A stretch of DNA of 64,000 nt, taken from assembly GCA_034002925.1 (NCBI GenBank), contig JAVEZP010000001.1:132024-196023 (forward strand). The letters run 5' to 3'. Positions 3,303 through 61,230 of this stretch are shown here, piece by piece (positions within the stretch are counted from its first letter, which is position 1; every line of letters starts with the position of its first letter). The translations under genes and the position numbers were made by a program. The notes beneath the pieces were generated by a model that was given only the letters and a program-made list of their open reading frames with translations, searched no databases and was not told the origin of the DNA. The stretch comes from Patescibacteria group bacterium (GTDB lineage: Bacteria > Patescibacteriota > Patescibacteriia > Patescibacteriales > UBA12465).

Positions 3303-6300
3303 ATGAGCGATCTTGCTTCCATTGAAAACTTAATAGATCCAAATAATAGTCAAGATGAAGATAGTGTACAGGGTCAGTTTGCTAAAAAACAACAGGAGAT
3401 AAAGTTAAAAGAGATTGAAAAACAAACAGAGAAAAAAGCGGCGCTGCTAGGCTTGCCTTATGTTAACTTATTTAGCTTTCCCATTAGTCCTGAAGCTTTA
3501 GTTATTATTCCTGAAAATACCGCCCTCTCCTTGCAGGCTGTATGTTTTTTTTATGATGGTCGTCACATCAGAGTCGCTTGTTTAGAGCCAAGCCCAGAAG
3601 TAGCAGAAGAAATAGAAAGAATAAATGAACAATATCACGCTGATACTAAACTCTATCTTGTATCGCAAAATAGCTTAAACCAAGCCTTAGAAGCCTATAA
3701 ATCACTCCCAAAGACTAAAAAATATGACTCTGGTGTGGAAATAAATGAAGATAGTTTAGAAAAGTTCAAACAAGACATTGCTAGTTATAAAAACCTAGAA
3801 GATAAGATTAATACTGTTAACGTCAGTGATATTGTCACTTTAATTTTAGCCACAGCTATTAAAGTTGGAGCCAGCGATATTCATATTGAAGCTGAAGAAC
3901 ATGGCGTAGCTGTGCGTCTACGCATTGACGGTGTTCTACAAGAAGCCGCTGTAATCGACAAGGATAAGTGGAAAAAGGTAGTAACCCGCATGAAAATTTT
4001 AGCCAGAGTAAAAATAAATATCAGCAATAAGCCTCAAGATGGACGTTATACAATTTATCTTAAGGATGGCAAAATTGATGTCAGATCTTCATTTCTACCA
4101 ACAGCCTATGGTGAAAGTGTGGTAATGAGATTATTAAACTCAAAAGCTGTAGCTTTGGAATTTGAAAAATTAGGCATTAGACCAGAAATACTCAAAAAAC
4201 TAAAAAGAGAAATTGAGAAACCAAATGGTCTAATTCTCACCACTGGTCCAACCGGCTCTGGTAAGACCACTACTCTGTATGCAGTTTTAAATAAATTAAA
4301 TCAACCGGGTAGCAAGATTGTTACTCTAGAAGATCCTATTGAATACCAACTAGAAGGCATTAATCAAAGCCAGGTAGAAACTAGCCGAGGCTATAGTTTT
4401 TCCGATGGCTTAAGGTCTATTTTGAGACAAGATCCGAACATTATTATGGTAGGTGAAATCAGAGACTTAGAAACAGCGGAAATTGCTGTTCAAGCTTCTT
4501 TAACAGGCCATTTAGTACTATCAACCCTGCACACCAATGATGCGGCTGGTGTTATCCCACGACTCATTGATATTGGCGTTAAACCATATTTTTTAGTACC
4601 CTCTATTAACGCTGTTATTGGGCAAAGATTAATCAGAAAATTATGCCCCCATTGTCGTCTTGAACATCAATTAAATACAGAAGAACAAGAACAAATTCAA
4701 AAAATATTAGCTGTTATTTCACCCAAGGCAAACATTGATATTCCCGCTAAAATACCAACCGTTTATAAAGTTGGTGAAGGTTGTGAACACTGTAATTATA
4801 TTGGCTATAAAGGCCGAGTAGGTATTTATGAAATATTCACTATGGATGATAATTTGAAGCAATTAACTATTGATAAAGCTCCTTCTTTTAAGATACTGCA
4901 ACAAGCTATTGAAAACGGCATGATTACCATGCTTCAAGATGGAATTTTAAAATGTTTAGAAGGCCTTACTTCTTTAGAAGAAGTATACCGCGTAATTGGT
5001 AATTTTGATTATGTTAATGAGTTATATGATATCGTCATCTCTCAAACCATCGGACGTGGTATTAAAATTAGTTCTGAAGAATACAGTAAGGCGGAAAGTT
5101 TAACTAAAAACATAGATAAACAATTAAATTTAAGCGACATCCCTTCAAAGGAATTAATATCCTTGATTATGGGCATGGCAGTTGCTAGTGATGCTGGAGA
5201 TGTTCACATTGAACCAACAGAAACTGGCGTCAAAACTCGTTTTCGTATTGACGGCGTCATGCATGACGTTTTAGATTTACCAAAAACCAGCTATCTACCA
5301 ATCCTGTCAGAAGTAAAAATTTTAGCTGGTTTTGCTACCAATATTAAAAGAGCTACTCTAGATGGTCGTTTTAGTATTTATTTAGCAGAGAAAAAAATTG
5401 ACTGTCGTCTTTCCATTATTGCTGGTGGCTATGGAGAAACGATTGTTGTGAGATTATTGTCTAATTCAGCTGCTACCTTAGAGTTAGAAAAACTAGGAAT
5501 TACTTCTGTTGCTAAAAGCTCTTTGGAAGAAGCTATTACTAAAACTAAAGGTATTATTATAACCACCGGACCAACTGGATCTGGTAAGACCACGACTTTG
5601 TATGGCATTCTTAATAAATTAAATAAATCTGATGTTAAAATTATTACCGTTGAAGATCCAATTGAATATCAATTACCAGGAGTGATGCAGACACAAATAG
5701 ACCCAGAGAGGGGTTATACTTTTGCCGCCGCCATGCGTTCTCTCTTACGACAAAATCCCAATATTATGATGATTGGAGAAATAAGAGACACAGAAACCGC
5801 AAAAATTGCCATTGAAGCAGCTATGACCGGTCATTTAGTATTATCGACTATTCATGCCAACAGCGCTGCCGGAGCTATTTCTCGCTTTGCTGGTCTGGGA
5901 GTAGATAAGTCAGCCCTAGCTAATGCTTTAGAATTCTCAATTGGACAAAGACTGGCGCGTCGTATTTGTCCTCATTGTAAAGTGATAGATAATCCACGAC
6001 CCGACCATCTACAAAAAGCGGAAGAAATATTAAAAAGCATTACTAATAAAAATATAAAAATTCCAGATAAACTCGAGTTCTATCGTGGCGCTGGTTGTGA
6101 TCAATGTAAAAAGCTAGGCTATAAAGGACGTATTGGTCTTTACGAAACCATTAGTTCTACACCTACTATTCAAAAAATGATCAAAAGTGAAGCTTCAACC
6201 GATTATGACATTGAAGTAGAAGCTATTAAGAGCGGCACTGTGACTATGGCTCAAGATGGAATATTAAAAGCTTTAGCTGGGGAAACTAGTTTAGAAGAAG

Positions 6301-6317
6301 TTTTCCGAGTTATCTAA
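3303..6317 (+). CDS. pilB: tandem-duplicated PilB/GspE-family secretion ATPase (two complete ATPase modules in one chain)
   Basis: T2SSE_N-like N-terminus (LGLPYVNL...). Two full sets of motifs follow: Walker A GPTGSGKTTTLY (x2), Walker B IIMVGEIRD / IMMIGEIRD, His box TGHLVLSTLH / TGHLVLSTIH, and tetracysteine CPHC...C..C (x2). Confidence 0.9.
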   Translation: MSDLASIENLIDPNNSQDEDSVQGQFAKKQQEIKLKEIEKQTEKKAALLGLPYVNLFSFPISPEALVIIPENTALSLQAVCFFYDGRHIRVACLEPSPEVAEEIERINEQYHADTKLYLVSQNSLNQALEAYKSLPKTKKYDSGVEINEDSLEKFKQDIASYKNLEDKINTVNVSDIVTLILATAIKVGASDIHIEAEEHGVAVRLRIDGVLQEAAVIDKDKWKKVVTRMKILARVKINISNKPQDGRYTIYLKDGKIDVRSSFLPTAYGESVVMRLLNSKAVALEFEKLGIRPEILKKLKREIEKPNGLILTTGPTGSGKTTTLYAVLNKLNQPGSKIVTLEDPIEYQLEGINQSQVETSRGYSFSDGLRSILRQDPNIIMVGEIRDLETAEIAVQASLTGHLVLSTLHTNDAAGVIPRLIDIGVKPYFLVPSINAVIGQRLIRKLCPHCRLEHQLNTEEQEQIQKILAVISPKANIDIPAKIPTVYKVGEGCEHCNYIGYKGRVGIYEIFTMDDNLKQLTIDKAPSFKILQQAIENGMITMLQDGILKCLEGLTSLEEVYRVIGNFDYVNELYDIVISQTIGRGIKISSEEYSKAESLTKNIDKQLNLSDIPSKELISLIMGMAVASDAGDVHIEPTETGVKTRFRIDGVMHDVLDLPKTSYLPILSEVKILAGFATNIKRATLDGRFSIYLAEKKIDCRLSIIAGGYGETIVVRLLSNSAATLELEKLGITSVAKSSLEEAITKTKGIIITTGPTGSGKTTTLYGILNKLNKSDVKIITVEDPIEYQLPGVMQTQIDPERGYTFAAAMRSLLRQNPNIMMIGEIRDTETAKIAIEAAMTGHLVLSTIHANSAAGAISRFAGLGVDKSALANALEFSIGQRLARRICPHCKVIDNPRPDHLQKAEEILKSITNKNIKIPDKLEFYRGAGCDQCKKLGYKGRIGLYETISSTPTIQKMIKSEASTDYDIEVEAIKSGTVTMAQDGILKALAGETSLEEVFRVI

Positions 6318-7464: not shown

Positions 7465-9936
7465 TTATTGAAAAAATTCTTTCAAATATTGTCCTGTTAA
7501 GCTATTTTTCTTTTTTGTAATTTCTGGTGGCGTACCACTAGCTACCACCAGCCCTCCCTTTTCTCCTCCTTCTGGGCCCATATCAATAATCCAATCTACT
7601 GCTTTAATTACATCTAAATTATGCTCAATAATAAGAACGGTATTACCTTGATCAACTAACATATTTAATACTTTTAATAGCTTATCAATATCAGCAAAGT
7701 GCAAACCAGTGGTAGGTTCATCAAGAATATAAAGAGTGCGACCAGTGGCCCGTCGTGACAGCTCAGTTGCTAATTTTATTCTCTGCGCTTCTCCTCCTGA
7801 AAAAGTGGTAGCGGATTGTCCTAAAGTAATATAGCCTAAACCCACTTCTTCTAAAGTAGCCAACTTCTGACAAACAGCTGAATGCCCTTTAAAGAAAACC
7901 AGAGCTTCACTCACAGTTAAATTAAGAACATCAAAAATATTTTTGTCACGATATTTAATGTCTAATATTTTTTGTTGAAAACGCTGACCATGACAAGCTT
8001 CACATTTTAAATAAACATCATTTAAAAATTGCATCTCTACTTTAATAGCACCATCTCCTGAACAACGCTCACATCTTCCTCCCTGTACATTAAAAGAAAA
8101 ATAACCAGGAGTTAACCGCTTCACTCTAGCCTCTGGTAATTCAGCAAAAATATCACGAATATAAGTATAAAGACCGGTATAAGTGGCCGGATTAGATCTT
8201 GGTGTACGCCCAATCGGTGATTGATCAATATCAATAACCTTATCAATATTTTCTAAGCCTTTTATCTCTTTATGCTTACCGACCTCAACCTTAGAACGAT
8301 AAAATTTCTTACTTAAAGCATTAGCTAAAATATCAGACATTAAAGTAGATTTACCAGAACCAGAAACTCCGGTGATAGCTACTAATTTACCTAAAGGAAT
8401 ATGTACATCAATATTTTTTAAGTTATGATGCTGTGCCCCTAATACAGAAATATGCTTTTTATTACCTTCTCTAAATTTTTCTTTTTTAGCAATAGCCAAT
8501 TTACCTGATAAATAAGCACCGGTACTAGACTGATGGCAATTATAAATATCTTGAGGCTTACCTGCAAAAATAATTTTCCCTCCATGTTCACCTGCGCCTG
8601 GACCAACGTCAACTAAATAATCCGCTGCTTGCATCATGGTCGCGTCATGCTCTACTACAATCACAGTATTACCATTATCACGCAAATTTTTTAACATCGA
8701 AATTAACTTATCATTATCTCTTTGGTGCAAACCCACCGAAGGCTCATCTAAAACATACAAAACACCACTTAAAGTAGAGCCAACTTGTGCTGCTAAACGA
8801 ATACGTTGGGCCTCGCCACCAGATAAGCTAGCGGCCGGACGACTAAGAGTCAGATAAGACAAGCCGACTTTCTCTAAAAATTCTAGATTTTTTACCATTT
8901 CTTTAATAATTGGCTGTAAAACAATTTGATTAGCAAACTTTTGATCAGTCAACAACCATTGATTGAGATTATTTTTTAAACGATCAATTGTTAACTCACT
9001 CATTTCATGAATATTTTTACCCTTAATTTTTACCGCTAAATATTCTGACTTTAAGCGAGTGCCCATACAAGCTGGACAAACCGCTAAACGCATACACTTC
9101 TCTATTTCTTGCTTAACAAAGTTAGATTTTGTCTCTTCATGTCTTTCCATTAAATCAGCACTTAAACCCTGCCAATTTTTATCACCATTTAAAATAGCCG
9201 CCCTCTGGGCAGCGCTAAAGTTAGCAACTGGCTCATTCAAACTAAAATTATACTTATCTCCCAAAGCTTTTAACTTAACAAAAAAAGAACTTTGGGCATT
9301 TAAATTAGCATGGGCTAAAGGTTTAATTGCGCCTTGCAATAAAGTTAATTTAAAATTAAATACTAACTCTGGGTCTATTTCTGTTCTGTAGCCCAAACCA
9401 TTACAATGAGGACAAGCACCATAACTAGAATTAAAAGAAAAATTACGGGGCTCAATTTCAGGTAAAACAAAACTGCAAGTAGCGCAAGCGTAAGGAAAAA
9501 AATGCTCTGTCTTTTTCTTTTTTTTGTCTGTTTTCTTCTCTGTCTTTTTCAAACGACTCTTGCAATGAGGACAATATGGCCAACCAGCCCGCGCATATAA
9601 TAATCTTAAATAATCATATATTTCCGTTACTGTCCCCACTGTAGAGCGCGGATTATTACCTACCGTTCTCTGATCAATCGCAATAGCTGGTGAAAGACCT
9701 TCAATTAAATCAAAATCTGGCTTATCCATTAAACCGACAAATTGACGAGCATAAGCTGATAAAGACTCCACATAACGCCTCTGACCTTCAGCATAAATCG
9801 TATCAAAAGCTAAAGAAGATTTACCAGAGCCAGAAAGACCCGTAATAACAATTAATTGATTACGAGGTAATTCTAAATCTATATTCTTTAAATTATGAGT
9901 ACGTGCTCCTTTTATTCTAATCTTATTCTCAGTCAT
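7465..9936 (-). CDS. uvrA: excinuclease ABC subunit A, short form lacking the UvrB-binding domain
   Basis: Two ABC ATPase modules ([23 protein letters not shown] x2) and zinc-finger CxxC pairs. Only a ~25-aa Lys-rich linker lies between CPHC and CATC, where class I UvrA carries a ~130-aa UvrB-binding domain. Confidence 0.9.
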
Positions 9937-13286: not shown

Positions 13287-14090
13287 ATGGATTTACAAAT
13301 ATTAGGTTCTGGCGGAACAATGACTGTGCCTCGTCCTTTATGCAGTTGCGCTGTCTGTTCAAAAGCTAGAAGAAAAGGGGGTAAATATAAACGCAATAAT
13401 GCTTCATTTTTTATTAAAGATAAGAATATTTTGATTGATTGCGGAGAAGATATTGCTGATTCTTTAAATAGACATAATATTAGCAAAGTGGATAATTTAT
13501 TTATCACCCATTGGCACCCTGATCACACATTTGGTTTGCGTGTTTTGCTTGAATCGGGATATAATTTTCGCACCCCTGGGGCAGACAAGATAATTGAAGT
13601 CTATATTCCTAAGAAAGTTTTTGAAGATTTAAAAGCTAAATTTCCAGTAATAGACTACCTACTTAATTTTCAAAAAACAGGAAATTTACACTTAATAGAG
13701 GATGGCGATGAAATAGAGTTTGGTAATTTAGTTATTGAAGCAGTGGGTTATAATGGCGTAGGTTCCGATCACTACGCATATCTTATTAAAGAAAATAATA
13801 AGCGTGTTTTATATGCACCTTGTGACACAATTGATTTTAACACTTATGAAAAAGTATTAAATTTAGATTTATTAATTCATGAATGTGGTATGTTTTTTGA
13901 TCATAAAACTGAAATTAAATTCCCAAATTTAATTAACAGACTACGCACCAATAAACCGGCAAAAACAATTTTTACTCATATTGAAGAGGTTGAACTAAGA
14001 CTCTATGGTGAAAGTTTTAAAAAAGCAAAAAAAGATTATTCTGATGTAAAATTTGATTTTGCCTTTGACGGCATGAAAATTAAAATTTAA
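13287..14090 (+). CDS. MBL-fold metallo-hydrolase
   Basis: HWHPDH (HxHxDH) motif. A TTGACA-N16-TATAAT promoter lies about 100 nt upstream (13181-13208). Confidence 0.8.
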   Translation: MDLQILGSGGTMTVPRPLCSCAVCSKARRKGGKYKRNNASFFIKDKNILIDCGEDIADSLNRHNISKVDNLFITHWHPDHTFGLRVLLESGYNFRTPGADKIIEVYIPKKVFEDLKAKFPVIDYLLNFQKTGNLHLIEDGDEIEFGNLVIEAVGYNGVGSDHYAYLIKENNKRVLYAPCDTIDFNTYEKVLNLDLLIHECGMFFDHKTEIKFPNLINRLRTNKPAKTIFTHIEEVELRLYGESFKKAKKDYSDVKFDFAFDGMKIKI

Positions 14091-14178: not shown

Positions 14179-16182
14179 TTAAGGAATTAATTTTTCAAAT
14201 GTCCTAGGAAATGGCACACAGTTATCTATTACTGCAATGTCTAAGAATTTGGCAATTAAACGGTCTAAACCAAGACCAAATCCACCATGCCCCACAGAAT
14301 TGTCAACAATAGAGAGATAAAACGCGTAATCAGCAACATTAATGTTTGCGAGCTTCATTGAATACTCTATTTTTTTACGGTTATTTTCTCTTATTGCGCC
14401 ACTTACCAATTCCCAACCACACAGTATGATATCAAAAGTTTCTGTCAAAAAAGAAGTTCCTTGTTTGGTATAAAACTTTTTGATATTAGAGGGATAATGA
14501 CTAATAACAAAGATATCGCTATCTTTTTTCTTTTTGATAACTTCACCAAGCTTAGCCTCACCGATAACCCCCAAATCAGATCCATATGAGCAGGAAAACC
14601 CATTAGAGTTTAATAAGTCAACCGCCTCCTTGTAAGAAATAATTGGTGGTTTGTTTTTTGGCAAATTAAGCTCAGCTAACGGCAGGGACATTTCTTTCAT
14701 TTGATAATAGCTATCGCAAATAATTGAATAGGCTAAATCGATAATCGTATTCAAATTTTTGGGATTTGATATTTCAACATCTAAGCCAATAGTTTCTTGC
14801 AGATGACGAAAACTATTTTCAGTTTCTGCTCGCCAAAAAGGTCCTATCTCAAATATTTTATCCATTCCTGAAGCAATAACCATTTGTTTATACAGCTGAT
14901 TAGACTGTCTCAAAAAAGCTCTTTCGCCTCTAGGCCAGATTACTTCAATCATGCCACCCTTATCTACTCGTGGCGGATCAGTTGACACACCAACTATGTA
15001 GGGAGTGTTAATTTCGTAGAATCCTTTTTCTAGAAGATTATTTCTTATTGAGTTAAAAACAAAACTTCTTTGTTTAATTATATCAAGCATGTCTGCAGAT
15101 AATCTTGATGAAGCACAAGTTGTTTGGATGTCAGTACTTATTTTTCCCAAAGATATTTTCATTTTATTTAAGAAAGTAATGATATTTTTATTTAATATCT
15201 GGCGCACCTGATTAACAGCACCTGCTCTCTCGTTTCGCGTTTTATGAGCTTCTTTGGAAAAAAATTGTACATCAAAAACTGTCCAAGCTAATTTTTTCTT
15301 CATCGCAGGAGTAGCTAAATCAAAAACGAAGGGCGTTGTCTTGCCAAAATAGTTTTCTAATTTAGCAAAAAGATCCGAGGTTTCACTATTATTATCAAGT
15401 GCCCAAAATATAGCTTGAATATTTTTCAAAACACTCCAATCATTAATTCTAACTATATTGATTTTCGTATTTTTTCTCATAATTTCATCCAATTTCTCTT
15501 GATTGCGATTAGTTACCCAAACCTTGTAATTATATTCTTCTGTTAATATTTTAGCAATAAGAGACCCTGATTGTCCGGCTCCAACAACAAGTATGTTAGA
15601 ATTAGTAGCAACCATTCCAACTAATTGATTAACAGCAATCCTTTCAATAGATGTATTACCTGAGAAGAGGATGGTTTTTTCTTTGACTTCTTCAATTAAC
15701 TCTTGAAGCCACCCAGAAAGAATGGAAAAAAGGGGTTCATTTTTGCTTAATCTAACTTCGGCTTTAATCGCGTTGTTAATTTGAGAAAAAACTTGTGAAT
15801 CTCCAACAGTTACACTGTACAATCCTAAGGCAGCTTCAGCAATAAATCTAATTGCCATTTCATTGTGGAAAAATTTTATTTTGTTAATAAATTCAATAAT
15901 TCCATGATTTGACAACTTGTGCCAAGCGTCTAAAACGCAATGATGCAGATATTCTTCAGAAACATTTTCTGTGTGAGTAAAAATTATCATTACGGCATTA
16001 CATTTTTGGATGATTGTTAATTGCTTTACATTAATCGCAAGTTTACGTTTAAATTTTTCAACCAAATTAATTTGGTTGGGAAAACTAGATGTTTTGAGCA
16101 TTCCTAATGCTTCTTCGTCTAATTTTGTAAAATTAAGCGCAGCACAAATAATTTCAACCGGAAAAGATGTTTTTTGTATCAT
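14179..16182 (-). CDS. fusion protein: N-terminal glutamyl-tRNA reductase (HemA)-like module plus C-terminal class IIb aaRS (Asp/Asn-type) catalytic core without anticodon-binding domain
   Basis: Single 667-aa ORF with SD AGGAGG 7 nt upstream of the ATG. N-terminal half: QKCNAVMI, ALGLYSVTVGDSQVFSQINNAI, ILVVGAGQSGSLIAKIL, VTNRNQEKL, FDLATP, in the same order as E. coli HemA [61 protein letters not shown]. C-terminal half: FYEINTPYIV (motif 1), QSNQLYKQ, FWRAETENSFRHLQE (motif 2), GHGGFGLGLDRL (motif 3). Confidence 0.75.
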   Translation of the reverse strand: MIQKTSFPVEIICAALNFTKLDEEALGMLKTSSFPNQINLVEKFKRKLAINVKQLTIIQKCNAVMIIFTHTENVSEEYLHHCVLDAWHKLSNHGIIEFINKIKFFHNEMAIRFIAEAALGLYSVTVGDSQVFSQINNAIKAEVRLSKNEPLFSILSGWLQELIEEVKEKTILFSGNTSIERIAVNQLVGMVATNSNILVVGAGQSGSLIAKILTEEYNYKVWVTNRNQEKLDEIMRKNTKINIVRINDWSVLKNIQAIFWALDNNSETSDLFAKLENYFGKTTPFVFDLATPAMKKKLAWTVFDVQFFSKEAHKTRNERAGAVNQVRQILNKNIITFLNKMKISLGKISTDIQTTCASSRLSADMLDIIKQRSFVFNSIRNNLLEKGFYEINTPYIVGVSTDPPRVDKGGMIEVIWPRGERAFLRQSNQLYKQMVIASGMDKIFEIGPFWRAETENSFRHLQETIGLDVEISNPKNLNTIIDLAYSIICDSYYQMKEMSLPLAELNLPKNKPPIISYKEAVDLLNSNGFSCSYGSDLGVIGEAKLGEVIKKKKDSDIFVISHYPSNIKKFYTKQGTSFLTETFDIILCGWELVSGAIRENNRKKIEYSMKLANINVADYAFYLSIVDNSVGHGGFGLGLDRLIAKFLDIAVIDNCVPFPRTFEKLIP

Positions 16183-16377
16183 GATGTGTCCTCCTATAGT
16201 TTGATTATGGATTATTTTAATTTTTAAATAACTATTTGTTAATTATCTTAACACTTATATTTAACATAATTAATAAAAACATACAATACTAACATATTTT
16301 TACTAGCGTGACGTCTCCCGGCTCTATTTATTATTAAACATTCTATCCACCTCTATACTTTCATGCATCTCAAATAC

Positions 16378-16410
16378 AAAAAGAGCATACTTATAGCATA
16401 CTCTTTTTAT
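16378..16410 (-). terminator. intrinsic terminator after tRNA-Glu
   Basis: The minus strand reads AAAAAGAGTATGC-TATAA-GTATGCTCTTTTT, an imperfect 9-bp stem plus U-run. Confidence 0.6.
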
Positions 16411-16414
16411 TTTG

Positions 16415-16486
16415 TAGTCCCTAGGGGAATCGAACCCCTGTTACCAGGATGAAAACCTGATGTCCTAACCACTAGACGAAGGGACC
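16415..16486 (-). tRNA. tRNA-Glu(UUC)
   Basis: Manual cloverleaf: GGTCCCT acceptor, anticodon loop TTTTCAT, T-arm AGGGG-TTCGATT-CCCCT. CCA is not encoded. Confidence 0.9.
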
Positions 16487-59683: not shown

Positions 59684-59844
59684 ATTTTCAAATTTATTAA
59701 ATGAATACAAACAACATAACACTATTTTTTTAAAAGGTCAATATTGTTAATTATATTTATTAACTTTTTATTAACACCTTTTAAACAAAAATTTTTATTT
59801 TTTGCTTGTTTATAATATGTTTATCACCTATAATAATATCATAT

Positions 59845-61230
59845 ATGAACAACGAACAAATTTGGAGAGCTGTGTTAGGTGAGTTAGAAATCAGCCTTTC
59901 AAGAGCTAATTTTATTACTTGGTTTAAAGATACTTTTGTATCTTCTTTTGAAAATGAACAAGTTATAATTTGTGTTCCTAATGCTTTTGTTAAAAAATGG
60001 TTAGAAGAAAAATATCATAAAAACATTCTTCATTCCTTAGAAAATATTAGCAAACAAAAAATTAAAGAGATTATTTATAAAATTGAGCTTCAAAAAAATC
60101 ATCAAAAAATTGAAGCGACTACCTCAAACACTAAAAACAAAGAAATAATTAATGAAGAAAAGATTATTAAAAATGAAAACAGTGCTGAAAATAGCTCAAA
60201 ATTTGGCCTAAACCCTCGTTATACTTTTGAAAACTTTATAGTCGGTAAAGGAAATGAGCTGGCCCATGCTGCTTGTCGAGCTGTAGTTAATAATTTAGGC
60301 AAAGCCTATAATCCTCTTTTTATCTATGGTGGAGTTGGTTTAGGAAAAACCCACTTGCTTCAAGCTATTGGCAATGAAGCCTCTAAATTTACTAATAAAA
60401 TTTTATATACTACTAGTGAAAAATTTACCAACAACTATATTCAAGCCGTTCAAACTGGTAAAGCTAAAGAATTTAAAAATGTTTATAGAAATGTTGATTT
60501 ATTATTAATTGATGATGTTCAATTTATGGGCGGAAAAGACGGAACTCAAGAAGAATTTTTTCACACTTTCAACGAGCTTCAACAGGGAGATAAACAAATA
60601 GTAATGACTTCTGATAGGCCACCAAAATCTATACCTGCTATAGAAAAACGCTTAATTTCTCGATTTGAATCTGGTATGGTGGCTGATGTTGGAAAACCAG
60701 ATATTGAAACAAAAATTGCAATCTTAGAAAAAAAATCTTTAGAAAAAAACTTCCCCCTTGATAAAGATGTTTTAATATATGTAGCTAATAATGTACAAAA
60801 CAACATTAGAGAATTAGAAGGAGCATTAAATAAAATTATAGTTATTCATCAATTAAACAATTCTGTTCCCACTTTAAAAAGTATAAAAAATGCTCTTAGT
60901 GATTATGTTTCTGATATACAAAGCAAATCAATGAGTGCTAAAGACATAATAGAGATTGTTGCTCGTTTTTATGAACTAAACATAAAAGAAATTACCGGTA
61001 ATAGTCGTAAAAAAGAGTTAGTAAAACCCAGACAAATATCAGCTTATTTAATAAGAGAAGAGCTTGGGGCCTCTTACCCAAATATTGGACAAGAGCTAGG
61101 GGGAAGAGATCATACCACCGCCATGCACGCTTATAATAAAATAGTAAAAGAAATTAAAGAAAATGAAAACGAAAAACTAAAACAAGAAATAGAATCAATC
61201 AGGCAAAGTTTAAAAAATCAAAGCTATTAA
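59845..61230 (+). CDS. dnaA: chromosomal replication initiator protein DnaA
   Basis: MNNEQIWRAVL start, AAA+ GGVGLGKTHLL, LLIDDVQF, and C-terminal DNA-binding GGRDHTTAMHAYNKI. The track start at 59806 is TTG and less likely. Confidence 0.95.
   Translation: MNNEQIWRAVLGELEISLSRANFITWFKDTFVSSFENEQVIICVPNAFVKKWLEEKYHKNILHSLENISKQKIKEIIYKIELQKNHQKIEATTSNTKNKEIINEEKIIKNENSAENSSKFGLNPRYTFENFIVGKGNELAHAACRAVVNNLGKAYNPLFIYGGVGLGKTHLLQAIGNEASKFTNKILYTTSEKFTNNYIQAVQTGKAKEFKNVYRNVDLLLIDDVQFMGGKDGTQEEFFHTFNELQQGDKQIVMTSDRPPKSIPAIEKRLISRFESGMVADVGKPDIETKIAILEKKSLEKNFPLDKDVLIYVANNVQNNIRELEGALNKIIVIHQLNNSVPTLKSIKNALSDYVSDIQSKSMSAKDIIEIVARFYELNIKEITGNSRKKELVKPRQISAYLIREELGASYPNIGQELGGRDHTTAMHAYNKIVKEIKENENEKLKQEIESIRQSLKNQSY

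Follow-up and report, generated by a model that had tools for sequence, protein, structure and literature searches.

A fusion gene in a patescibacterial genome

The subject of this study is a single gene on contig JAVEZP010000001.1 of a Patescibacteria group bacterium (assembly GCA_034002925.1), analysed within a stretch of 64,000 nucleotides (positions 132,024 to 196,023 of the contig) which is referred to as the window and whose G+C content of 32% is similar to that of the candidate phyla radiation (CPR). The gene is located at positions 14179..16182 of the window on the minus strand and forms one uninterrupted open reading frame (ORF) of 667 amino acids plus stop, in which a glutamyl-tRNA reductase (GluTR)-like reductase is followed by a class II core resembling that of aspartyl-tRNA synthetase (AspRS). 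An earlier sequence-only reading of this DNA, whose interval (14179-16486) takes in a tRNA gene besides the ORF, had described the same continuous frame and a strong Shine-Dalgarno sequence; the latter, AGGAGG, is read from the sequence at 16190..16195 (minus), 7 nt before the ATG. The tRNA gene, tRNA-Glu(UUC), occupies 16414-16486 on the strand of the fusion, upstream as stated in that reading, but at a distance of 231 nt and not 233 nt. The terminator that had been ascribed to it is visible by eye as a hairpin followed by a T-run at about 16378-16408, but was not called by the consensus terminator scan. A promoter-like site (TTAACA-17-TAAAAT, 16214..16242, minus) between tRNA-Glu and the ORF suggests that the fusion is transcribed separately from the tRNA, although the number of such sites equals that expected from shuffled sequence and the site is a consensus match only. 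Screening of the 231-nt leader with Rfam at E <= 1 for a riboswitch or T-box matched the tRNA alone.

Pfam identified three non-overlapping matches in the protein, in the order GlutR_N (residues 43-142, E 1e-7), Shikimate_DH/GluTR NADP domain (residues 193-292, E 4e-10) and tRNA-synt_2 (residues 362-661, E 6e-50). The same scan returned neither the OB-fold anticodon-binding domain (tRNA_anti-codon, PF01336) nor GlutR_dimer, in whose place the AspRS core follows the start of the spinal helix; order, missing OB-fold and replaced dimerisation part had all been foreseen by the sequence-only reading. The NCBIfam hemA model (TIGR01035) matches residues 15-342 (E 1e-17) with 64.2 bits against a cut-off of 209.55, and the archaeal-type AspRS model PRK05159 matches residues 338-667 (E 3e-67) with 227.3 bits against a cut-off of 353, while the archaeal AspRS model TIGR00458 gives 177.7 bits (cut-off 368.4). 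Since all of these scores lie under the curated cut-offs, the fusion belongs to neither the hemA nor the AspRS equivalog. The PRK05159 match covers model positions 107-438 and, as it begins at position 107, indicates a hinge and catalytic core without the anticodon-binding domain, in agreement with the archaeal-type Asp core proposed before. The best model for asparagine synthetase A (AS-A) reaches 89.2 bits on the fusion (cut-off 368), and the genX/EpmA equivalog 30.6 bits (cut-off 286.9).

Comparison with solved structures gave a corresponding picture. A family profile of the N-terminal half aligns to GluTR (4n7r, E 3e-38; 1gpj, E 8e-36) and the alignment stops in the spinal helix, while the C-terminal half is closest to the archaeal AspRS structures 3nel/1b8a (E about 5e-44, ~30% identity). 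The AlphaFold2 model computed from an alignment of 38 sequences is confident (mean pLDDT 84.8), with only the loop at residues 403-422 disordered, and archaeal and eukaryotic AspRS lead the Foldseek matches to this model, 3nel being the top one.

On this basis, four parts can be assigned, all on the minus strand. The GluTR-type catalytic domain (residues ~1-185; 15628..16182) is delimited by the GlutR_N match, the profile alignment to 4n7r and conservation, and contains K60-C61-N62, the G120/S123 loop, G127-D128-S-Q130-V131...Q134 and G175/S178/R181. The codon of Cys61, the putative thioester-forming nucleophile, is at 16000..16002. The NADPH-binding Rossmann domain (residues ~186-310; 15253..15627) displays G201-x-G203-x-x-G206, N225-R226 and D288 of FDLATP. 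It is followed by a long helix that corresponds to the spinal helix of GluTR, carries R319 and leads into the AspRS hinge (residues ~311-365; 15088..15252; helices in the model at residues 317-356 and 363-385). The last part is the archaeal-type AspRS catalytic core without OB-fold (residues ~366-667; 14182..15087), with the motif 1 region (R380/E390/P394), the loop STDPPRVDKGG (400-410), LRQSNQLYKQ (424-433), motif 2 (FWR451AE), D468/E470, R598 and motif 3 (GFGLGLDR641). The motifs quoted in the sequence-only reading, QKCNAVMI, GLYSVTVGDSQVFSQ, VVGAGQSGS and FDLATP for the reductase and QSNQLYKQ, FWRAE and GFGLGLDR for the synthetase, are all present.

The fusion constitutes a rare family

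A search of 5.8 billion clusters yielded 94 clusters with the same three-domain architecture, 650-680 aa in length and down to 31% identity, which come from NCBI, JGI, ENA and Logan assemblies. When the N-terminal half was searched exhaustively, further, remoter members appeared, several of which bear a tRNA-synt_2 core according to Pfam; altogether > 110 proteins, mostly from the tiny-genome Patescibacteria, share the architecture down to ~25% identity. Among the GTDB species representatives, 22 loci carry the fusion, all of them Patescibacteria or mis-binned CPR contigs, and the hosts include Falkowbacteria, Kaiserbacteria, Azambacteria, Moraniibacteriota and the Parcubacteria group. A protein identical to that of the window has been deposited (L005/P0002, JAQVGD010000259.1) in a metagenome-assembled genome labelled 'Lutibacter sp.', and other fusion loci are labelled Gammaproteobacteria, Fervidobacterium, Flavobacteriaceae or Bdellovibrionales; these oddly labelled loci look like mis-binned CPR contigs. 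The names at present given to members are 'aspartate-tRNA ligase', 'glutamyl-tRNA reductase' or 'hypothetical'.

The sequence-only reading had considered that the ORF might be an assembly or frameshift chimera of two genes, and two relatives do show the gene as two ORFs (L022/L023, at L022:8640-8900, and L044, at 8340-8620). Both cases, however, result from a single frameshift inside the linker, beyond which the homologous reading continues in another frame; a naturally split gene was accordingly rejected, and the frameshifts could be sequencing indels or mark pseudogenes. As more than 110 full-length fusions with conserved length and linker stem from independent samples and assemblers, the probability of a chimera is practically negligible.

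The GluTR-like half: conserved catalytic residues and an altered side-chain pocket

Conservation was assessed in an alignment of 111 fusions of 600-720 aa. Thirteen residues of the GluTR-like half are identical in 111/111 sequences, namely K60, C61, N62, S123, G127, D128, V131, Q134, R181, G201, G203, D288 and R319; the nucleophile motif and the NADPH glycines are thus more strictly conserved than any other part of the fusion, the synthetase site included. In the profile alignment, C61 of KCNA coincides with the catalytic Cys of GluTR STCNR, and the Rossmann GxGxxG together with N225 (98/111) and R226 (103/111), which match the NADPH-type NR(S/T) motif, coincides with the GluTR NADPH site. In contrast to these residues, the side-chain pocket differs from that of GluTR: TCNR has become KCN(A/C/S/G), GE has become GD, and K60 and R181 are new invariant basic residues. 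The Arg of GluTR TCNR reportedly forms a salt bridge to the side-chain carboxylate of the glutamate, as described with the 1gpj structure; at this position, all 111 fusions have Ala, Cys, Ser or Gly. R319 aligns with Arg300 of Methanopyrus kandleri GluTR, which binds a citrate, presumably a mimic of the acceptor stem of tRNA (PMC6399207). The invariant catalytic residues, together with the systematic changes of the pocket, argue that the reductase machinery has been kept while the side-chain pocket has been re-tooled.

One interpretation of such a protein would be a true glutamyl-tRNA reductase that acts on the neighbouring tRNA-Glu(UUC) in 5-aminolevulinate and haem synthesis, and both the GluTR fold with its catalytic Cys and the position of the tRNA gene upstream on the same strand are in line with this. 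However, the adjacency which the sequence-only reading took as a functional link is limited to the window and L006, a relative with 90% identity, and none of the 18 other loci scanned has a tRNA-Glu beside the fusion; we therefore treat it as coincidence and have discarded tRNA-Glu as a functional partner. The anticodon itself differs between the two loci, being UUC in the window (16414-16486) and CUC (CTC in the DNA) at the same position in L006 (9709-9781). Given, furthermore, the loss of the TCNR Arg throughout the family, the lack of a dimerisation domain, a hemA score far under its cut-off, the absence of hemL or other haem genes from the gene lists of the loci examined and the fact that the fused and the neighbouring synthetases are all Asp-specific, a function as genuine GluTR is extremely improbable.

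The AspRS-like half

Positions to which solved AspRS structures, by homology, assign the binding of Asp and ATP are conserved in about 92-97% of the 111 fusions. This applies to S427 (108), Q429 (107) and K432 (102), which lie in QSNQLYKQ, to R451 of motif 2 (104) and R641 of motif 3 (108), and to D468 (103), E470 (107) and R598 (108). Compared to ordinary archaeal AspRS, QSPQ is changed to QSNQ and RPFY to KKFYTK, and the flipping loop ('TEGG') is replaced by a longer loop, STDPP(K/R)VDKGG, which is disordered in the model. Judged from these residues, both halves of the fusion look catalytically competent.

Genes adjoining the fusion in related genomes

In 20 distinct loci (L001, L003, L010, L012-L015, L018, L020-L022, L024, L025, L044, L047-L052), a complete AspRS scoring above the NCBIfam curated cut-offs is encoded within about 2 kb of the fusion. 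The enzymes are of three types: the GAD-less bacterial enzyme of ~470 aa, which is the ordinary AspRS of Patescibacteria with > 8000 homologues, a full-length GAD-containing bacterial enzyme (L048, L049) and the archaeal type (L047, L051). The gene orders vary as well, comprising aspS-SDR-fusion, aspS-GNAT-fusion, aspS-fusion, fusion-aspS and divergent or convergent pairs (SDR, short-chain dehydrogenase/reductase), and 4-nt overlaps are common. Three types of AspRS in varied gene orders argue for selection rather than for mere inherited synteny. As a canonical AspRS adjoins the fusion in so many relatives, the fusion is probably not the AspRS of the cell but would work alongside one, as an accessory enzyme and not the housekeeping synthetase. 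With regard to the ordinary patescibacterial enzyme (e.g. L013:7825-9243), which lacks the GAD insertion domain, at least 8000 candidates are found at E <= 1e-50, and among the 120 matches listed its length is 438-501 aa, in nearly all cases 460-490.

These loci also bear on whether the fusion serves translation, as a discriminating or non-discriminating AspRS whose OB-fold has given way to a tRNA-binding module derived from GluTR. The retention of the hinge and of an intact class II active site of the AspRS type, the ability of GluTR domains to bind tRNA and the name 'aspartate-tRNA ligase' which some databases give to members would all agree with this, and a synthetase with a swapped tRNA-recognition module was among the three options of the sequence-only reading. 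If meant as the AspRS of the cell, this option is not supported: the canonical enzyme is encoded next door in the 20 relatives, the family is rare (94 clusters compared to the > 8000 of patescibacterial AspRS), an invariant Cys and NADPH site are needless for pure tRNA binding, and the scores stay under the curated AspRS cut-offs. We thus regard a translational role as very improbable.

A second recurrent neighbour is an SDR of ~250 aa of the YdfG/YMR226C type, which adjoins the fusion in 11 loci. In 10/11 of these it is located between aspS and the fusion, commonly with 4-nt overlaps, and in L052 it is found just downstream in convergent orientation. The nearest solved relatives of the SDR are YMR226C, YdfG, sulfoacetaldehyde reductase and clavaldehyde dehydrogenase, which reduce small polar aldehydes. 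In L047 and L019 its place is taken by an unrelated iron-dependent alcohol dehydrogenase (Fe-ADH) of the lactaldehyde/sulfoacetaldehyde-reductase type. That the SDR has been displaced by a non-orthologous enzyme of like chemistry provides good support for an aldehyde as the product of the fusion. In addition, an amidohydrolase-fold protein (PF04909, or a weak TatD/PF04909 match) adjoins the fusion in L001, L010, L012, L025, L047 and L050; a search for its closer function gave no NCBIfam match and, in the PDB, one weak match to an uncharacterised hydrolase. None of these informative neighbours figured in the sequence-only reading; they are seen in the relatives and not in the window.

The recurrence of aldehyde reductases from two unrelated families is difficult to explain if the fusion is an aminoacyl ligase, in which the core would aspartylate a protein, lipid or metabolite in the manner of EpmA, ErdS or AS-A and the GluTR-like half would serve as substrate-binding or redox/NADPH-sensing module. 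Such a ligase, likewise one of the three options raised before, would account for the retention of the catalytic residues of the core and for the GNAT or ATP-grasp ligase that adjoins the fusion in some loci, and the known class IIb paralogs without anticodon-binding domain are ligases (PMC9437257). However, the GluTR nucleophile motif and NADPH glycines are kept in 111/111 sequences, more strictly than the synthetase site, some members without the motif 2 Arg still keep KCN, and the EpmA and AS-A scores are far under their cut-offs. We therefore assign little probability to this explanation.

Some loci contain further class IIb proteins around the fusion. Two or three such synthetases are encoded in L024 (11854-13263 and 18100-19425), L050 (8100-9476 and 9728-11035) and L047 (878-2173, 4154-5467 and 5548-6897), in combinations of bacterial and archaeal AspRS or of two archaeal AspRS and an AsnRS-like protein. 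A rare stand-alone AspRS-like core of 323-324 aa, also without anticodon-binding domain, is found near the fusion at L001:4527-5501 (minus), L048:4562-5533 and L049:12237-13034; it exhibits fusion-type motifs (TDP loop, QSxQLHKQ, FWR, KKFYTK, GWE) unlike those of ordinary archaeal AspRS, is represented by about a dozen clusters in the database and lies a few kb from the fusion in three genomes. Distant homologues of the fusion occur in clusters of the non-ribosomal peptide synthetase (NRPS) type on contigs of 67-75% G+C (L045:1-18001 and L046:1-17941), together with Aminotran_4, LigAB, GFO_IDH, SDR, ATP-grasp, GNAT, a C-A-T-C NRPS and a class I LysRS paralog. One of these homologues (P0113) is devoid of the class II motif 2 Arg and has a degenerate synthetase site, while another (P0110) keeps the Arg.

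A putative aspartyl-tRNA reductase

The preserved GluTR machinery, the changed pocket, the Asp-type core and the linkage to AspRS and aldehyde reductases are most economically explained by an aspartyl-tRNA(Asp) reductase. We propose that the fusion is an accessory, Asp-tRNA(Asp)-linked enzyme producing aspartate 1-semialdehyde, i.e. the Asp counterpart of GluTR with a built-in AspRS core, and give this proposal about an even chance of being correct. Of the three options in the sequence-only reading it corresponds to the tRNA-dependent amino-acid transformation enzyme, which fits best. In GluTR, the catalytic Cys attacks the aminoacyl ester of Glu-tRNA to form a thioester, which is reduced by NADPH to the 1-semialdehyde (PMC7242693). 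By analogy, the C-terminal core of the fusion would bind Asp and ATP as AspRS does and would form alpha-aspartyl-adenylate and/or hold the acceptor arm of tRNA(Asp), whose charging may fall to the fused core or to the canonical AspRS that adjoins the fusion in most relatives. The aspartylated CCA end would then move into the N-terminal GluTR-like domain, where Cys61 would attack the ester to give an enzyme thioester and NADPH would reduce the latter to L-aspartate 1-semialdehyde (3-amino-4-oxobutanoate). In the relatives, the adjacent SDR or Fe-ADH would reduce the semialdehyde to 3-amino-4-hydroxybutanoate, and the amidohydrolase-fold enzyme would process this product further. Here the Asp substrate, the tRNA carrier, the choice of carboxyl group and the identity and use of the product are all inferred.

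Several points weigh against this proposal. If the canonical AspRS supplies Asp-tRNA, the complete adenylation site of the fused core goes unexplained; if, on the other hand, the core charges the tRNA itself, the tight linkage to AspRS does. The core is without any anticodon-binding domain, and in a few remote members of high G+C the motif 2 Arg is missing although KCN is present, which indicates that the core is not always catalytic. In the clade of the window (window, L006-L008, L016, L017), none of AspRS, SDR and amidohydrolase is encoded closer than 10 kb to the fusion, so that the operon evidence is transferred from orthologues that are 31-48% identical. The pTM of the structural model (0.63) leaves the arrangement of the domains uncertain, and no metabolic role for 3-amino-4-oxobutanoate or 3-amino-4-hydroxybutanoate was found in the literature searched.

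An alternative would be a tRNA-independent carboxylate reductase, similar in logic to the carboxylic acid reductases (CAR), in which aspartate is adenylated by the core and the acyl-adenylate is the direct target of Cys61. If the beta-carboxyl group were the one activated, as happens in the asparagine synthetases derived from AspRS, the product would be aspartate beta-semialdehyde, which the neighbouring reductase could convert to homoserine, and the fusion would represent a non-orthologous replacement of aspartokinase, aspartate-semialdehyde dehydrogenase and homoserine dehydrogenase. Consistent with this are the missing anticodon-binding domain, the fact that AspRS/AsnRS-type cores lacking it (AS-A and its archaeal counterpart AS-AR) work without tRNA (PMC9437257), the adjacent aldehyde reductase, the replaced flipping loop and the change of QSPQ to QSNQ near the amino-group site of AspRS; moreover, ATP activation, reduction of a Cys-thioester by NADPH and conversion of aldehyde to alcohol parallel the canonical homoserine route, and the products have an obvious use. 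However, the complete AspRS of three types that have been kept beside the fusion in 20 loci would go unexplained, the core scores 227 bits against AspRS and only 89 bits against AS-A models, and it retains the AspRS set of Asp-binding residues. S123, D/E128 and Q130 around the Cys are common to GluTR and fit an alpha-aminoacyl ester, and R319, the counterpart in the alignment of the GluTR Arg for which acceptor-stem binding has been proposed, is invariant. Taken together, we consider a tRNA-independent reductase unlikely.

The proposed aspartyl-tRNA reductase shares with GluTR (1gpj, 4n7r) the N-terminal catalytic fold, the Cys nucleophile in xCNx, the substrate helix GLxSxxxG(D/E)xQ(V/I)xxQ, the Rossmann domain with GxGxxG and NR(S/T) and the start of the spinal helix with its Arg (R319 in the fusion, Arg300 in GluTR), which implies the same chemistry, from aminoacyl ester through thioester and hydride transfer to an alpha-amino aldehyde. 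It differs in that the C-terminal dimerisation domain is replaced by the AspRS core, in the loss of the TCNR Arg with gain of a Lys at -1 and of Arg181 and the change from GE to GD, in that the position equivalent to His84 is not conserved, and in its scores under the hemA cut-offs, its context without haem-pathway genes and its tie to AspRS instead of GluRS or tRNA-Glu. With archaeal AspRS (3nel/1b8a, 1wyd; PRK05159), the fusion has in common the hinge and the class II core with motifs 1-3, QSxQLYKQ, the D/E after motif 2, the arginine of SGxxR and HGGFGLGxxR, at ~30% identity to 3nel; it is set apart by the missing OB-fold, by QSNQ, the long STDPP(K/R)VDKGG loop and KKFYTK, and by its coexistence, in the relatives, with a canonical AspRS, which speaks against a translational role.

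Among the paralogs of aminoacyl-tRNA synthetases, a 2022 review gives only AS-A/AS-AR and ErdS for AspRS (PMC9437257). AS-A and the archaeal AS-AR (3p8t, 1nnh) and EpmA/PoxA resemble the C-terminal half as class IIb cores that lack an anticodon-binding domain and act outside translation, but they are stand-alone enzymes that catalyse amidation or protein lysylation and are not fused to a reductase. ErdS (AspRS-DUF2156) and LysX (LysRS-MprF) are synthetases fused to a domain which consumes their own aminoacyl-tRNA (PMC9437257). They offer an analogy and a precedent, since an Asp- or Lys-type class II module and a second catalytic module using the aminoacyl-tRNA ester are combined in one polypeptide; in contrast to the fusion, both have retained their anticodon-binding domain and use a lipid as acceptor of the aminoacyl group, whereas a reductase would destroy the carboxyl group.

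An extension of the proposed reaction might be envisaged in which the fusion is a 'self-loading' reductase: the core without anticodon-binding domain would charge the CCA end of tRNA(Asp), which would act as a swinging carrier arm, and the GluTR-like site would reduce the aminoacyl group, thereby providing a tRNA-dependent route to aspartol (3-amino-4-hydroxybutanoate). The tRNA would be comparable to the phosphopantetheine arm of NRPS and CAR enzymes. In CAR and in NRPS A-T-R modules, adenylation by ATP is likewise followed by a carrier- or enzyme-bound thioester and reduction to the aldehyde by NADPH; there, however, an ANL domain, a phosphopantetheinyl carrier and an SDR-type R domain, with folds unrelated to those of the fusion, perform the roles which in the fusion would fall to a class II synthetase core, probably a tRNA carrier, and a GluTR-type reductase. 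We put this idea forward tentatively and consider it possible, but clearly less probable than an Asp-tRNA(Asp)-linked reductase as such. We know of no biology of aspartol; aspartol adenylate is a synthetic inhibitor of AspRS. It might even be speculated that the AspRS-like cores and the linked AspRS genes serve in the synthesis of, and the protection from, a mimic of aspartyl-adenylate, to which we attach a very low likelihood.

Further features of the window

By tblastn, no second AspRS, SDR, Fe-ADH or amidohydrolase was found within the 64-kb window, and the sole conserved neighbour of the fusion in the clade of the window is a metallo-beta-lactamase (MBL)-fold hydrolase. In the window this protein of 267 aa is encoded at 13287-14090 (plus), convergent to and 89 nt downstream of the fusion, and has weak family matches to RNase Z, PhnP and a GPMC-system hydrolase. 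The pairing is kept in 6/6 loci of the clade (window, L006, L007, L008, L016, L017) and may be functional or mere synteny. The ten largest proteins of the window include TyrRS, a PilB-like ATPase, UvrA, GlmS, SMC, phosphoenolpyruvate synthase and DnaA. A GspE/PilB-type secretion ATPase of 1004 aa (3303-6317, plus) matches in two stretches, an apparent tandem duplication of the ATPase module. As dnaA is located near the end of the window (59806-61230, plus), the region of the chromosomal origin is probably close.

Implications

In the literature searched, we found no description of the fusion architecture, which is in accordance with the sequence-only reading, nor of an aspartyl-tRNA reductase, the predicted products or a module of AspRS, reductase, fusion and amidohydrolase-fold protein. 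Both modules of the protein are of known kinds; what was not found described is their fusion and the presumed Asp specificity of a GluTR-type reductase. GluTR, to our knowledge the only characterised enzyme that reduces an aminoacyl-tRNA, is among the rare cases in which tRNA is used outside translation. If our proposal is correct, the fusion would join GluTR as the second kind of aminoacyl-tRNA reductase known, and tRNA-dependent reduction of amino acids would be a more general chemistry. It would further add a new class of AspRS paralogs to AS-A/AS-AR and ErdS, and would reveal a conserved four-gene module consisting of AspRS, aldehyde reductase, fusion and amidohydrolase-fold protein. The occurrence of related members in NRPS-type clusters of high-GC bacteria suggests that amino-aldehyde building blocks could arise in a similar way. 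For the CPR, present annotations of the family can inflate the counts of aminoacyl-tRNA synthetases or falsely suggest haem synthesis. Finally, as the metabolism of Patescibacteria is minimal, an accessory pathway that has been retained is likely to matter for their lifestyle.

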